A stretch of 64,000 bases of DNA from a virus (lineage: Duplodnaviria; Heunggongvirae; Uroviricota; Caudoviricetes), in IMG/VR virus record IMGVR_UViG_3300045988_163275, positions 1-64,000 of that record; one strand, given 5' to 3'. Position 1 is the stretch's first letter, and each line of letters begins with the position of its first letter. Positions 7,181 to 40,444 of this stretch are shown in pieces. The notes below the pieces were generated by a model. It worked only from the letters and a program-made list of their open reading frames with translations, did not search any database and was not told where the DNA came from. The translations under genes and the position numbers were made by a program.

Positions 7181-7326
7181 AAAATCCTTATTACATAAGC
7201 TGGTCGATGGTGATAGAAGAACTCACAACCTGCGAGCCAACCAAAATTTCCTCTCCATAGATCAGCTGCACCGGGTTTCCTTGGTTAGTGGTGTTCTGCG
7301 GCCCATCGAAATAGAACGAGTCGGAG

Positions 7327-7776
7327 TTATCTGCCTGTCTCGTTAGTGGCTTGCGGAGATATGATTTGCGCTATACCGCCCATCATCAGTGACAAACCGA
7401 GAGGTGCTAAAGCAGGCATCATTACCGCCGATACAACCAACAAAGCGGCTCCTACTACCGTCTGAAACCACCCAAAAGCAGAACCGCCGCTTCCTCGCGG
7501 AACAGGGGTAATGCGGATTTTGGCTATGTTGTCAGACTGCCCCATCATCTGATATTCACTCTCGTCCACAGACCACTTGTAGCCCTGTTTATTGGTGATC
7601 TGGATGTGGTATTTGTCGTAGGTTTTGAGATTTCGCTTCATCCAGGCTTTGAATCCGGGGCGATTAGCCTCAATCAAATCCAGAGCCTGCTTGGTGTTGC
7701 GAACTTTCAAATGCCAATGACGACCAAAATGTTTGGCCATAGGGCCGCCAAGTTGCACATGAACTAACTCAGACAC
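7327..7776 (-). CDS. tail assembly protein (lambda I-like)
   Basis: 149 aa; hydrophobic Gly/Ala-rich C-terminus (GGSAFGWFQTVVGAALLVVSAVMMPALAPLGL); sits between K-like and J-like genes. Confidence 0.65.
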   Translation of the reverse strand: MSELVHVQLGGPMAKHFGRHWHLKVRNTKQALDLIEANRPGFKAWMKRNLKTYDKYHIQITNKQGYKWSVDESEYQMMGQSDNIAKIRITPVPRGSGGSAFGWFQTVVGAALLVVSAVMMPALAPLGLSLMMGGIAQIISPQATNETGR

Positions 7777-8588
7777 TTTTCATCTCCCTTGAGTAAGTCT
7801 CTGTGACGCAGATGGTGCGTCGTATGTTTCTGGTACATGCCGCCGTAATAAGCGCGACAACTCAGGCGGTCGATTTGGTGATGCAGGATCATGCCGTCTC
7901 CGATATACACCGCGCAGTGATCAGGCATTTTCCCGTACTGGATGAAGAAGACATCGCCGCGCTGCGGCTCCGTCCCTGGCGCAAGACGCACAAGCCCTTC
8001 ATTTCGATAGTTATGGTCGAGAATGTCATCATCACCCGTGTACCATGACGGAATATGCAGATGCGCATTCGGGTTCAGCTCGACACCAAACTCTCGTTTC
8101 AGATAGTCGCGACAAAGCATCCAGCAGTCGAAGACGCCGAACACATAGGGTCGGCCCAGATAAGGCATCTCAAAGCCGTCTGGGGTGATCACATTCATTT
8201 CACTGAAGTGAAATGGCGCATCGCCCTCGATGTTCTTGCGAACAGCCAGAATCAGCCACGGAACTTCCGTTGCCTCACATCCGGCGCGGTCGGCGTCTGA
8301 CGCATCAGCAGATTCGTCAGTATGGGAGTGCCAGATGGCAACCACGTCTCCCGCATCTTCCGCAGCGATAATGTCGTCAGCGTGCATAACAAACGTGTTT
8401 TCCGGGTACTCCGACACGTTCCGGGCTTCAATGAAGCGATATTTCTCGCCAGTGGTACGCACCAGAAAGCCACACGCTTCGTTCGGGTAGCGTTTGATGG
8501 CTGTCAGATAGATTTGTTGCATAACGTCCGAGCCAAGCTCAGGGAGCACTTTATTACCCATAACGTGTTGCCCCAATGAACCCGCCAA
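7764..8588 (-). CDS. tail tip assembly protein (lambda K-like; MPN/JAB + NlpC/P60)
   Basis: JAB/MPN-like motif (EACGFL...HSHTDE) followed by NlpC/P60-type Cys context (FDCWMLCRDY); position after L-like gene. Confidence 0.85.
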   Translation of the reverse strand: MAGSLGQHVMGNKVLPELGSDVMQQIYLTAIKRYPNEACGFLVRTTGEKYRFIEARNVSEYPENTFVMHADDIIAAEDAGDVVAIWHSHTDESADASDADRAGCEATEVPWLILAVRKNIEGDAPFHFSEMNVITPDGFEMPYLGRPYVFGVFDCWMLCRDYLKREFGVELNPNAHLHIPSWYTGDDDILDHNYRNEGLVRLAPGTEPQRGDVFFIQYGKMPDHCAVYIGDGMILHHQIDRLSCRAYYGGMYQKHTTHHLRHRDLLKGDEKCLS

Positions 8589-27954: not shown

Positions 27955-29514
27955 ATGACAGTTCGGATTGTATCGAATGCAGTCAATGCGCTGATTTCTA
28001 GCGCTGATGACAACGTGAAGCGGCTCGTTCAGGAGATGTTGAGCTATGAAGTGGAGGCTGGGGACTGGAAAGGAACCAGCACGATGTTCAACTGGAGCAA
28101 AAACGCGTTCCCGGCTGGGTTTGCGAAGCCAGTTGCAGCCAACCTTCTGAAAGCTGGCATCAAATGCGTGCATGTGCGCAAGGAAAAAGCTCCCGCGCTG
28201 GGCAAGCCGAACCCGGTAGTTAACCCATTCCCGTATAACCCGGACTATGCGTATCAGGATCAGACAGTGGAAACACTGGTGCGCGAAGGGATGATGATTG
28301 CCCAGATTGCGACGGGTGGCGGTAAATCGAACGTAGCGTGTAAGGCTGCTGCTCGCATTGGTCGTATGACGCTGTTTTTAACCACGCGATCGGTTCTGAT
28401 GTTCCAGATGGCAGAGAACTTCCAGAAATCCATCGACTACCGCGCGGAGAATGGCGAGCCGTGGCTGAAAGGTCAGAGAGTTGGGGTGATTGGATCGGGT
28501 GAGTTCCAGGTCTCGCGCCATATCAACGTTGCCACGGTGCAGACCCTGGCCAGTTTTCTCGAAGAGCCACCGCGCGACGCATCACCGGAGAAAAAACAGT
28601 ACCACCTGAAGCGCCGGGAACTGGTTAAACGCTTCCTGTCCAGCGTTTCTCTGCTGATTCTGGAAGAGGCACACGAATCATCTGGTTCTAACTTCTACGA
28701 CATCGCCCGGTTGTGCATCAATGCCGACTACCGTCTGGCGCTGACAGCTACGCCGTTCATGAAGGACTCGACTGAAGCAAATATGCGTCTCATGGCCGTT
28801 GCGGGTCGCATCGAGATAAAAGTAACGGAGAAATATTTGATCGACAGAGGTATTTTAGCGAAACCATACTTTTTATATCATAAAATCGCGTACACTCCAG
28901 ATGAGGCGCGGATTAGAGCCGAACTTGCTTCAAAACACCTGAATTTTCGGGTTGGAATGAGCACGGCTTACCAGAAAGCCTATCAGTTAGGCATCGTCTA
29001 TAATCTGGGCCGCAACGAAGCTATTGTGCGTGAAGCGCTAATGTACAAGAGTCACGGTCTGAACTGTATGACATTGGTTCGTCTGAAGCGTCATGGTCAG
29101 ATCTTGATGGAAATGATGAAAGAGAGTGGCCTCAAGGTCGATTTCATCTACGGAGAATCAAACCAGACTACCCGACAAGCAAAACTTAATAGTCTGGCGG
29201 CAGGCAAGATAGATGTTCTCATTGGTTCAACCATTCTGGATGTTGGTGTCGACGTTCCAAGCGTAGGCGCGGTGATTCTGGGTGGTGGCGGGAAAGCAGA
29301 AGTTGAAATGAGACAGCGTGTCGGTCGTGGCTTACGAGCCAAGAAAAATCAGGCTAACGTGTGCTTTATTACCGACTTCATCGACGTGAGCAACAAATAC
29401 CTCATGTCGCATTCATATGAGCGGAAACACATTATCGACACGACGCCTGGGTTTGCCGAGGGGGTCTTGCCGGTTGGCAGCACATTCGATTTCACTGTTT
29501 TGGATAGAGAGTAA
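27955..29514 (+). CDS. SF2 DNA helicase (DEAH-like)
   Basis: Motif I (ATGGGKS), motif II (LEEAHE), motif III (TATP), motif VI (QRVGRGLR). Confidence 0.8.
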   Translation: MTVRIVSNAVNALISSADDNVKRLVQEMLSYEVEAGDWKGTSTMFNWSKNAFPAGFAKPVAANLLKAGIKCVHVRKEKAPALGKPNPVVNPFPYNPDYAYQDQTVETLVREGMMIAQIATGGGKSNVACKAAARIGRMTLFLTTRSVLMFQMAENFQKSIDYRAENGEPWLKGQRVGVIGSGEFQVSRHINVATVQTLASFLEEPPRDASPEKKQYHLKRRELVKRFLSSVSLLILEEAHESSGSNFYDIARLCINADYRLALTATPFMKDSTEANMRLMAVAGRIEIKVTEKYLIDRGILAKPYFLYHKIAYTPDEARIRAELASKHLNFRVGMSTAYQKAYQLGIVYNLGRNEAIVREALMYKSHGLNCMTLVRLKRHGQILMEMMKESGLKVDFIYGESNQTTRQAKLNSLAAGKIDVLIGSTILDVGVDVPSVGAVILGGGGKAEVEMRQRVGRGLRAKKNQANVCFITDFIDVSNKYLMSHSYERKHIIDTTPGFAEGVLPVGSTFDFTVLDRE

Positions 29515-29516
29515 GC

Positions 29517-29795
29517 ATGAGCGAGAAACGCGCTATTAACTGCCAGGTTAAGTTAACCGAAAAAGCAAACGATAAACTAGAGACCTTTCAGAATCGACTG
29601 CGTGAACGCAGCATAAAACTGTCAAAGGCAGACATCATCAATCTGGTGCTGTCCAATATGACGATGGGTGATTTTGATAAGATAGCTACGTCATTAGAGA
29701 CTACTGCAAAGGCTCGTGAAAAGGTCATGAAGATTTACGAAAACTCGGGTATGACCAAAGAAGATCTGGCCGATATTCTAAAACGCCTCGATTGA
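29517..29795 (+). CDS. hypothetical protein
   Basis: 92 aa ORF starting 3 nt after the helicase stop. Confidence 0.4.
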   Translation: MSEKRAINCQVKLTEKANDKLETFQNRLRERSIKLSKADIINLVLSNMTMGDFDKIATSLETTAKAREKVMKIYENSGMTKEDLADILKRLD

Positions 29796-29854
29796 GCATT
29801 ATGGCGCCTTGAGGCGCCATGATTTTCGTAAAGATAAGGATTTTGTTCGGCACA

Positions 29855-30277
29855 ATGAAACACGTATTACTTCCTCTGGTTGCTGCCTCCGCGTTACTTA
29901 TCACTGCATGTCAATCTCGTCCTATTCCTGTCTCTGAGGCAAAGCCAGCACCGCAGACCAGAATATTCAAATACCAATCTCCGGCGGCATCGACGCTGGT
30001 GGTTATGAGAGATAAAAGCATGGTGGGCGCCGGTTGCGACGCATCGATCTTCATCAATGGCGAAACCGTTGCAAAACTGGAAACAGGTGAAAAAGTCACT
30101 TTTCATCTGGATGCCGGAGAATGGATTGTTGGCGCCTCACTCGAAGACGCTGGGCTGTGCGCACTGAATCCTGCTCGTCAGGAACGCGAGACGATTACCA
30201 AAGCTGGCGAGACGAAAGTCTTCCGGGTGTTCACCAGTAATGCTGGTGACATCGATATCTTACCAACGACACTGTGA
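29855..30277 (+). CDS. lipoprotein (candidate superinfection-exclusion protein)
   Basis: Start at MKHVLLPLVAASALLITAC: signal peptide with lipobox LITA-C; mature domain about 120 aa with 2 further Cys. Confidence 0.5.
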   Translation: MKHVLLPLVAASALLITACQSRPIPVSEAKPAPQTRIFKYQSPAASTLVVMRDKSMVGAGCDASIFINGETVAKLETGEKVTFHLDAGEWIVGASLEDAGLCALNPARQERETITKAGETKVFRVFTSNAGDIDILPTTL

Positions 30278-30281
30278 CGAT

Positions 30282-30809
30282 ATGACGAATATTACTGACA
30301 TCACCTACGGGATTCCTGCAGAAGTCTGGCCGCGCGATTACACCAACGTGGAGAAAGCGCTGATGTTCTGGCGCAAGTCTCTTATTCCTGTAAGGGTCAC
30401 GATGGAAGATGGTCAGGTGTTCTGCATGTATGTTCAGGGTCTCATGTCGTCACGCAACAAGGTCGACCTTTGCCCTGCCCCGTTCGACAAAGATAATCGT
30501 ATAAGGCTCCCACTTGAGCGAATCAGCACGATTGAATCAGGTGTGACAGAAGGCATTGCACACGACTTCACGGGTCGGACAACGATACACCCAGACTATG
30601 TGGACAATCGGCCATCTCGCCGTGATTTCTTCAAAATTTGTCGCCAGGCCCATGAGATGCAGAAGTCTATAAGGGTCTACATGGCGGATGGCCGTGAAAT
30701 TGAGGGGGTGTCTTCAGGCGTTGACGCTTGTCAGGTCACACTCAACATGGGGGACGGTAGGAAGACAGTCGCCATGTTCGATTGGGTCGAACGGATTTTA
30801 CCGTTTTAA
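30282..30809 (+). CDS. hypothetical protein
   Basis: 175 aa from MTNITDITYG; last gene before the AT-rich island. Confidence 0.4.
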   Translation: MTNITDITYGIPAEVWPRDYTNVEKALMFWRKSLIPVRVTMEDGQVFCMYVQGLMSSRNKVDLCPAPFDKDNRIRLPLERISTIESGVTEGIAHDFTGRTTIHPDYVDNRPSRRDFFKICRQAHEMQKSIRVYMADGREIEGVSSGVDACQVTLNMGDGRKTVAMFDWVERILPF

Positions 30810-31054
30810 ATCTATAAGGGTAATAACCGGCTAAGTCCGGTTATTATTTTATTCGTCACTTCCCGTTATATTTATTTCCCACAAACTCGATTCCAATTTA
30901 AATATATAAGGGTGATTGGCTGAATAGAGAATTTATTTAGGCAACACCTTCGAGAAAATGCATTTTATTTCTAAGACTTTGATTTTTATTGAATAAAATT
31001 TTTCATTCCCGAACAAAAAAACTCTTGATTTTATTTTCTGTATGTCGATAATTA

Positions 31055-31125
31055 ATCACATCGAAAGCGAACGCGCTAACGATAAATAAATAAAAAATTA
31101 AGTTATCAATATTACATAAGGATTA
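31055..31125 (+). promoter_or_regulatory. sigma70-like promoter without operator palindrome (low-GC island)
   Basis: cTTGATTttattttctgtatgtcGATAATtaatcac in a roughly 320-bp AT-rich region upstream of 31131..31781; no AAACAAnTTGTTT copy. Confidence 0.45.
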
Positions 31126-31130
31126 ACATC

Positions 31131-31781
31131 ATGTCTAACGTTACCATTTCTAAAAAATCCATCATCGACGCTGCTGTAGTTATCGCTAATGAATTGCAAG
31201 TTGCAGCCAACAACGCTACTCAGACTTATAACAATCATTATCAGAATGGTACACACACAAAAGCGGATAAAGCCAACATGCTTGCAGCGTCTACCAAACT
31301 AGCATACTTCACCAACAACGTTTTAAACGCTGTTAATGATGAGAAATTAGCTGGTGTCTTTTACTACGCGATTAAAGCAAGCAAACAAGCGCCAGAAGTG
31401 TTTTTCCGCGAAGCTATGACAAATAGCTATTCACTCGAAAAATTGGTTTATCTGGTTAAATCAATTAAATCTGGCAAATGCGTTTATTCCGTCGCTGATA
31501 TGTCCGGATCTCGTGTATTCGCGTTAATCGATATGATTAACGACGAGATCGACACGTTCACTAATGGCGCTGTTTTCGATTTAATGAATGAAGCGAAAAA
31601 AGCCAACGAAATAAAATTAGACGCTGGATACACTCAAGCCAACCAGCTTATCAATCTTTGCGAACGTCTGGGACTGGTCGAAAAAATCAAAGGAATGGGT
31701 GCAGCGAAAAACGGATCACAGCAATATCGCTTCGTTAAAAATGATTTTTATAACTATCTGGCTGATGCTTTCAAAGCGTAA
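31131..31781 (+). CDS. hypothetical protein (low-GC island gene 1)
   Basis: 216 aa, Asn/Lys-rich, markedly lower GC than flanks; upstream AT-rich region with sigma70-like TTGATT-N16-GATAAT and no operator palindrome; hairpin immediately downstream. Confidence 0.5.
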   Translation: MSNVTISKKSIIDAAVVIANELQVAANNATQTYNNHYQNGTHTKADKANMLAASTKLAYFTNNVLNAVNDEKLAGVFYYAIKASKQAPEVFFREAMTNSYSLEKLVYLVKSIKSGKCVYSVADMSGSRVFALIDMINDEIDTFTNGAVFDLMNEAKKANEIKLDAGYTQANQLINLCERLGLVEKIKGMGAAKNGSQQYRFVKNDFYNYLADAFKA

Positions 31782-39704: not shown

Positions 39705-39745
39705 ATTGTTTAAGGCCACAAATAATGGCCTTATCTGGCTTACGG
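39705..39745. terminator. palindrome plus hairpin between convergent genes
   Basis: TTAAACAAATTGTTTAAGG followed by hairpin AAGGCCACAAATAATGGCCTT, between 3' ends of 39481..39684 (+) and 39740..40444 (-). Confidence 0.4.
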
Positions 39746-40444
39746 AACAGCAGTAATCAGATCGCAAATGCCTGTTTTAGTTAAATCACTATTTAGCTTC
39801 TGAAAATTGGCATTCAGCATTGCGGTATGTATTCGATTCTCAAGTTCAAAGAAGAGATCGATCTTGCCCTCTTTGGCTGCCACCTTCTTCCAAATATTCA
39901 CCTGGTCATCTGCGATACGACTTGCGCAGGTGAACAAGAACGAACTCCCTCTGGGAAGGGATGTCGTGCTGTAGTATTCACCGTCAACTTCAATATACTT
40001 AGCTCGGAATGACTCCAGAGTTAGCTTTTTACCGCTCTCAGCCTGCTTTGTGTCTGCCTTGCTTGTCTTTTCCTGAACTTCAGGCTGTTTCTGCACAGGC
40101 TTTGGTGTCTCATTGACCACCGCAGTGCTGGCCGAACCATCCAAACTCTTGAGGCCATTAATTTGGATTAGATAAGCCAACTCCAGAGTCTTATCACCAG
40201 TGAGTTTTCCACGCATACTTACCCATTGACGCTGAACCGTCTTTAAGGCGTCTGCGTCCCCCGGGTTTGCTTTGAGTGCGTTGGAATAGGTAGAGCTAAG
40301 TTGTTCGTCTAATTTTGACAGGCGTTCGTTATCGCAGATTTTGTGTTCGATTTCTGCCGAAGCCTTTTGGCAGTCAAAGCTGGCTGCAAATACAGCCGGC
40401 GATGCCACCAACAATGATGCCAGTAGGATATTTTTCATATTCAC
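39740..40444 (-). CDS. secreted protein with lysozyme-inhibitor-like (LprI/DUF1311-type) N-terminal domain
   Basis: Signal peptide (MNMKNILLASLLVASPAVFA), then FDCQKASAEIEHKICDNERLSKLDEQLSSTYSNALK...QRQWVSMRG, resembling the Cys-containing DUF1311 pattern; family assignment from memory. Confidence 0.45.
   Translation of the reverse strand: MNMKNILLASLLVASPAVFAASFDCQKASAEIEHKICDNERLSKLDEQLSSTYSNALKANPGDADALKTVQRQWVSMRGKLTGDKTLELAYLIQINGLKSLDGSASTAVVNETPKPVQKQPEVQEKTSKADTKQAESGKKLTLESFRAKYIEVDGEYYSTTSLPRGSSFLFTCASRIADDQVNIWKKVAAKEGKIDLFFELENRIHTAMLNANFQKLNSDLTKTGICDLITAVP

Follow-up and report, generated by a model that had tools for sequence, protein, structure and literature searches.

Among the closest known systems to the lipoprotein described here are Cor, encoded by phages phi80, N15, HK022 and T1, and Llp, the FhuA-inactivating lipoprotein of phage T5. 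Like our protein, these are phage-encoded, carry a lipoprotein signal and are presumed to be outer-membrane lipoproteins. The cor gene lies beside the tail-fibre genes in N15, and T5 lpp beside the receptor-binding gene oad, a placement that resembles the position of relatives of our gene by tail-tip and fibre genes. The mature domain, however, is ~61 aa in Cor and Llp and 122 aa in the protein studied here, whose alleles do not track the receptor-binding proteins of its own element and for which an exclusion role is a candidate function. A further precedent comes from the mEpimmI coliphages, whose lipoproteins Lpp021 and Lpp010 exclude phages that use OmpA or LamB, as demonstrated by experiment (PMC11893012). 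The mEpimmI lipoproteins sit inside the structural gene cluster and occur as several interchangeable sequence types (PMC11893012). Our lipoprotein likewise comes from temperate phages or elements and exists in several sequence types, whereas for mEpimmI exclusion is an experimental result. Also counted among the closest systems are the TssJ-type outer-membrane lipoproteins, which have a transthyretin-like fold, and PHROG 890, whose profile the window lipoprotein matches over its full length; PHROG 890 and the Pfam family DUF2846 are both without an assigned function.

The phage-plasmid and the neighbourhood of the lipoprotein gene

The window, that is, the whole stretch of DNA analysed, comprises 64,000 nucleotides of a Caudoviricetes record in IMG/VR (IMGVR_UViG_3300045988_163275, positions 1 to 64,000). 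E. coli plasmids such as NZ_CP101235.1 (IncFIB, non-mobilizable) match the region round the lipoprotein gene at 99.9% identity, and Salmonella phage SSU5 matches it at 95%. In the annotation of NZ_CP101235.1, tail, head and terminase genes and two ParB-like genes are followed by a same-strand run in the order helicase, 92-aa ORF, lipoprotein, ‘transcriptional regulator’ and more small genes. These identities, together with the gene content of the matching plasmid, identify the window as an SSU5/pHCM2/pMT1-type phage-plasmid of E. coli. The SSU5 orthologue of the lipoprotein gene, SSU5_122, is already annotated ‘lipoprotein’.

Several differences from NZ_CP101235.1 were seen elsewhere in the window. 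Collinearity is lost beyond ~33 kb, and the IS1 and ISKox3 transposase genes of the plasmid are absent among the window's long ORFs. A gpI-like tail assembly gene at ~7190-7783 (minus strand) carries an 8-bp deletion at ~7340 that shifts the reading frame; the phage-plasmid copy in the window may fail to produce infectious tails, or the deletion could be a sequencing error. A second exported protein, with a signal-peptide-like N-terminus, is encoded at 39740-40444 on the minus strand, and a protein of similar length in NZ_CP101235.1, probably its counterpart, is annotated as belonging to the lysozyme inhibitor LprI family.

The following features make up the same-strand run around the lipoprotein gene:

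27955-29514, plus strand: SF2 DEAD/DEAH helicase, first gene of the run (Pfam DEAD, ResIII and Helicase_C domains)
29517-29795, plus strand: orf92, a 92-aa ORF of PHROG 1466, left border of the variable cargo slot
29801-29822, plus strand: hairpin AUGGCGCC-UUGA-GGCGCCAU, directly 3′ of the orf92 stop, with a short U run after it
29855-30277, plus strand: lipoprotein gene, 140 aa; signal peptide residues 1-18, predicted lipidated Cys19, 122-aa mature domain
30282-30809, plus strand: FljA-like ‘repressor of phase-1 flagellin’ gene (Pfam PF03614, E 1.5e-95)

The helicase also matches PADLOC PbeA models (best E 1.8e-22), a match that may come from shared SF2 motifs alone. Compensatory base changes preserve the stem of the hairpin in Y. 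pestis pMT and in Enterobacter, and the folding energy is -21 kcal/mol (z = -2.1). It was not called in the terminator scan because it is followed by only 4 U. The hairpin is possibly a weak terminator or an RNA-stability element, and may make the lipoprotein/FljA pair partly independent of the helicase and orf92. A search of the window for a consensus promoter of the lipoprotein gene found none, this weak hairpin being the only element upstream. An earlier note on this DNA had assigned the gene to a ‘helicase operon’; the conserved hairpin that parts the gene from the helicase and orf92 leaves that assignment uncertain. The same note had placed the gene between the helicase and a low-GC island (roughly 30800-31400, GC 0.30-0.36); it adjoins neither, as orf92 and the hairpin intervene upstream and the FljA-like gene downstream.

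Only 4 bp separate the lipoprotein stop from the FljA-like start, and the spacing is the same in pMT, in Enterobacter and in two E. coli variants. The FljA-like gene is probably co-expressed with the lipoprotein. It is conserved in SSU5-type phage-plasmids of E. coli, Salmonella, Yersinia pestis, Enterobacter and Klebsiella. The gene suggests that SSU5-type elements switch off host flagellin through its product; our literature search found no paper tying fljA to SSU5-like elements.

A conserved lipoprotein under purifying selection

Lipoproteins were recognised by a positive n-region, a hydrophobic core and a lipobox of the form [LVI][ASTVI][GAS]C (PROSITE PS51257). The N-terminus of the 140-aa protein, MKHVLLPLVAASALLITAC, fits this pattern: the match is VAASALLITAC, with Lys2 in the n-region, the lipobox L-I-T-A-C and the cysteine at position 19. 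The hydrophobic core has a mean Kyte-Doolittle hydropathy of 2.4, and residue +2 is Gln, not Asp. The earlier note's description of a phage-encoded lipoprotein, with a signal peptide ending in a lipobox (LLITA-C) and followed by about 120 aa, is thus upheld by the PS51257 match, Cys19 and the length of the mature part, as well as by PHROG 890; its remark that a lipoprotein has no obvious role in DNA replication we also count as supported.

All 16 close relatives compared keep Cys19, Cys61 and Cys102. Among more distant relatives the lipobox is present in 134 of 148, Asp occurs at +2 in none, and the usual cysteine count is three. Five pairwise comparisons gave dN/dS values of 0.05-0.18. The gene is therefore under purifying selection; on these values it is a real selected gene, and we rejected the reading of 29855-30277 as a chance ORF. 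An alternative upstream ATG at 29819 would yield a protein of 152 aa (12 residues more), but in the versions from Y. pestis pMT and Enterobacter a TGA interrupts the frame opened by this ATG, which identifies 29855 as the conserved start. The AlphaFold2 model (pLDDT 77, pTM 0.70) has an eight-stranded beta-sandwich behind a flexible linker.

Family membership and comparison with known lipoproteins

By profile comparison the protein belongs to PHROG 890 (‘lipoprotein’), with a full-length match (E 1.8e-52) in which residues 8-140 align to profile positions 5-136 of 136. By the Pfam threshold it is not a member of DUF2846 (PF11008), to which the match is weak (19.9 bits, E 7.8e-4) and below the gathering cut-off of 34.3 bits. 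DUF2846 is weakly matched by 12 of 44 family members, with a best E of 2.1e-5; Bd1399, the sole structure discussed under DUF2846, was reassigned to DUF4360 by its authors. An exhaustive profile search recovered 1208 cluster representatives at E <= 0.001, 489 of them at E <= 1e-10. The representatives are nearly all ~140 aa in length and come from Pseudomonas, Yersinia, Stenotrophomonas, Cedecea and others, and every listed member with a named source is annotated ‘hypothetical protein’. No functional study of PHROG 890 members was found in the literature. NCBIfam and PADLOC gave no match for the lipoprotein, and no PADLOC defence model was hit.

Structural comparison placed the fold in a common class. 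PDB chain sequences gave no match to the family profile even at E 10, and a Foldseek search of the PDB with the lipoprotein model returned nothing at E <= 0.001. The best match in a BFVD fold search was a DUF4352 protein (E 4.7e-5). All fold matches were to a generic transthyretin-like beta-sandwich, none of them informative, and no Cor or Llp entry was found among the PDB fold matches.

We compared the family alignment with Cor and Llp by hhalign. With N15 Cor, 18 columns were aligned, all of them within the signal peptide (probability 42%), and with the T5 lipoprotein (‘lpp’ in NC_005859, the classical Llp) 20 columns, again all signal peptide. Membership of the Cor or T5 Llp families was rejected, since the mature domains do not align. 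The likening to T5 Llp and lambdoid Cor in the earlier note consequently fails if it is taken as homology, with signal peptides alone aligning and no similarity of fold. A tblastn search of a phage collection, which may or may not contain mEpimmI genomes, matched only 16 records, none of them mEpimmI, and in this search no sequence similarity to the mEpimmI lipoproteins was detected. Two other candidates were set aside: a Bor or TraT homologue, as Pfam gave no match to Lambda_Bor or TraT, and an o-spanin, as neither the helicase, orf92 nor the FljA-like gene, its neighbours, is a lysis gene.

Genomic placement of relatives

The positions of relatives proved the most telling line of evidence. 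Phage mEp390, K. aerogenes prophages (49% identity), Klebsiella N15-like phage-plasmids (~51% identity) and three Pseudomonas prophages all carry their relative of the lipoprotein gene with tail gene K on one side and I/J on the other. In 80 IMG/VR contigs, a set that was retrieved with tail-module-type members and is thus biased to that subfamily, gpI was the next gene downstream, on the same strand, in 78, and gpK lay upstream in 75. In the Pseudomonas satellite phage phiAH14b (16.8 kb, satellite-like), the only genes from the tail module are the tail assembly protein I gene and the lipoprotein homologue (together L006 4320-5384), and these two appear to travel as a pair. The homologues in Pseudomonas phages AH14a and AH14b (AH14a_p83 and AH14b_p21) have been proposed, without experiment, to be Cor-like (PMC4936722).

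In two Pseudomonas prophages a strong intrinsic terminator directly follows the lipoprotein stop and precedes gpI, an arrangement that, as far as sequence can tell, is the classic layout of a moron. A different context was found in Shewanella prophages, in which the relative directly follows a CI-type repressor (HTH_3 and Peptidase_S24). In one Shewanella lineage it also precedes a PF14373 gene (Imm_superinfect, T4 Imm-family superinfection immunity), for which the positions are:

L023 7445-7882: PF14373 gene of a Shewanella prophage, immediately following the lipoprotein homologue, with the CI-type repressor upstream of both
L024 7445-7882: PF14373 gene in the same arrangement

Other copies were found in an integrative element, beside a decayed integrase and, in one case, alone in the chromosome with no mobile-element genes within 7 kb. 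Among complete E. coli genomes the gene is present in 108 of 5426 (~2%) and is always plasmid-borne; it is carried as well by Y. pestis pMT1 and by Salmonella pHCM2-type plasmids. Judged by their gene contexts, the relatives are almost all cargo of temperate phages.

Carriage on pMT1, on pHCM2-type plasmids and in 108 E. coli genomes would also suit a moron that benefits the host in ways unrelated to phages, through serum or stress resistance, adhesion (as for lambda Bor) or envelope homeostasis, and both the moron-like layout of the family and the fixation of one homologue as a lone chromosomal gene agree with this. We nevertheless regard such a host-fitness role as unlikely. The Pfam searches gave no link to Bor or TraT, prophages of environmental Pseudomonas, Shewanella and Nevskia carry the family just as commonly, which makes a role in an animal host unlikely, and the tight linkage to gpI/J and to CI and Imm genes points instead to interactions between phages.

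Allele exchange in a variable slot

On comparison of SSU5-type elements, what lies between orf92 and the FljA-like gene varies: this segment is a cargo slot with swappable content. While orf92 is kept in Cyrano and in the Klebsiella phage-plasmid, their slot genes differ. The slot of Cyrano (L026 2105-3889) holds a 199-aa protein and a 266-aa lipoprotein with Asp at +2, and that of Klebsiella phage vB_KpnS_p4727 (L027 2240-3942) holds two proteins of unassigned function and a 118-aa secreted protein. The 266-aa Cyrano lipoprotein and the 118-aa Klebsiella secreted protein belong to a common family, PHROG 2320, and the slot appears to be a hot spot for exported proteins.

Five SSU5-like elements were compared at the amino acid level, with the J C-terminus defined as the last 400 aa:

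Window against pMT or Enterobacter: lipoprotein 84% identity, flanking genes 90-99% (orf92 lowest), J C-terminus 51-54%, fibre 40-42%
CP056300.1 against NZ_OP378623.1 (E. coli): lipoprotein 58%, flanking genes 86-99% (orf92 lowest), J C-terminus 100%, fibre 23%
pMT against Enterobacter: lipoprotein 99%, flanking genes 98-99%, J C-terminus 56%, fibre 39%

Between CP056300.1 and NZ_OP378623.1, six of the seven structural and replication genes compared are at 98-100% identity and the tail fibres at 23%; J, K, L, tape-measure, capsid, portal, terminase and helicase stand at 98-100%, and FljA at 97%. The dS of the lipoprotein gene in this E. coli pair is 2.2, against ~0.1 in the flanking genes. These allele identities and dS values show that the gene behaves as a cassette: it is recombining and under purifying selection, its alleles exchanged by recombination. 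The family as a whole bears the marks of a moron, with a slot that varies in SSU5-like elements, a jump in dS, and terminators in two Pseudomonas prophages.

The same comparison bears on the central proposal of the earlier note, that the lipoprotein masks the phage's own receptor in the manner of Llp or Cor and so blocks its own virion and phages with the same receptor. Relatives do adjoin J and tail-fibre genes, Cor, Llp and the mEpimmI lipoproteins provide precedents, and the same proposal has been made for the Pseudomonas phage homologues (PMC4936722). However, among the five elements, a small sample, the lipoprotein alleles showed no co-variation with the tail-tip C-terminus or the tail fibre, so that the data argue against a mask whose alleles match the tail-tip or fibre protein of the element. 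In addition, the reported receptor of SSU5 is the LPS core oligosaccharide (PMC4138488) and not a protein that the lipoprotein could plug. These two results weaken a strict self-receptor mask; the protein also lacks homology to Llp or Cor, and in the window the gene lies ~22 kb away from the tail-tip genes. We consider such a mask quite unlikely. Support for the earlier proposal comes from the placement of relatives at exclusion or lysogenic-conversion positions.

Proposed function

We tentatively propose that the lipoprotein is an outer-membrane exclusion or surface-modifying factor, carried as accessory cargo of the resident phage-plasmid. The protein would be exported by Sec, lipidated at Cys19 and cleaved by signal peptidase II, and the Gln, rather than Asp, at +2 predicts that Lol sorts it to the outer membrane. 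Its small beta-sandwich of transthyretin-like type is probably stabilised by a disulfide that links Cys61 to Cys102. At the outer membrane the lipoprotein would bind or alter a component of the envelope, such that incoming phages adsorb poorly or fail to deliver their DNA. Exclusion is meant here in a broad sense, and released progeny may also be kept off cell debris. The resident element would make the lipoprotein together with the FljA-like flagellin repressor, whose gene would change the cell surface too. That the protein reaches the outer membrane, that it is expressed while the element is a plasmid-prophage, and that it excludes phages by way of an envelope target are steps that we infer. 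Placement at exclusion or moron positions, adjacency to Imm-type and repressor genes, and the precedents of Cor, Llp and mEpimmI argue by analogy for a reading of the exclusion type, to which we give cautious credence short of an even chance.

A helper of the lytic cycle, which would prevent progeny from re-adsorbing to debris or vesicles or aid envelope events at release and would have no role in the carrier state, is improbable: although the gene in lambdoid phages forms part of the late tail operon, with the same orientation, and would be transcribed late from there, it occupies a repressor operon in Shewanella, is parted from gpI by its own terminator in Pseudomonas prophages and is coupled here to an FljA-like regulator whose effect is relevant only in long-term carriage, while the folded 122-aa mature protein looks unlike an o-spanin from what is generally known of these, and the spanins of SSU5 are assigned elsewhere in a phage spanin census (PMC6139136).

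A wider form of the exclusion reading is somewhat less likely than that reading itself. PHROG 890 might constitute a new and widespread family of exclusion lipoproteins, unrelated to Cor and Llp and ranging from Enterobacterales to Pseudomonas, Shewanella and Xanthomonadales. Its members would travel as a cassette with gpI/J in lambdoid phages and with a repressor in others, and in SSU5, pMT1 and pHCM2 would form, with the FljA-like repressor, a two-gene surface-remodelling module in which an outer-membrane target is altered and the flagella are switched off.

Implications

The gene and its ‘lipoprotein’ label were already in the databases, and the idea of a Cor-like role had been voiced for homologues. 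New are the scale of the family, the strict synteny with gpI, the CI/Imm context, the cassette-like exchange and, in SSU5-type elements, the partnership with a flagellin repressor. If the exclusion function is true, the family would be new but its task of a known kind: a large class of lipoproteins, unrelated in sequence to the known ones, would join the short list of receptor or entry blockers, and there would be an explanation for the conserved ‘extra’ gene that many lambdoid prophages have beside tail gene I. With the gene present on Y. pestis pMT1, on Salmonella pHCM2-type plasmids and in ~2% of complete E. coli genomes, such a function could shape the phage susceptibility of clinically relevant strains and would bear on phage therapy and phage typing.
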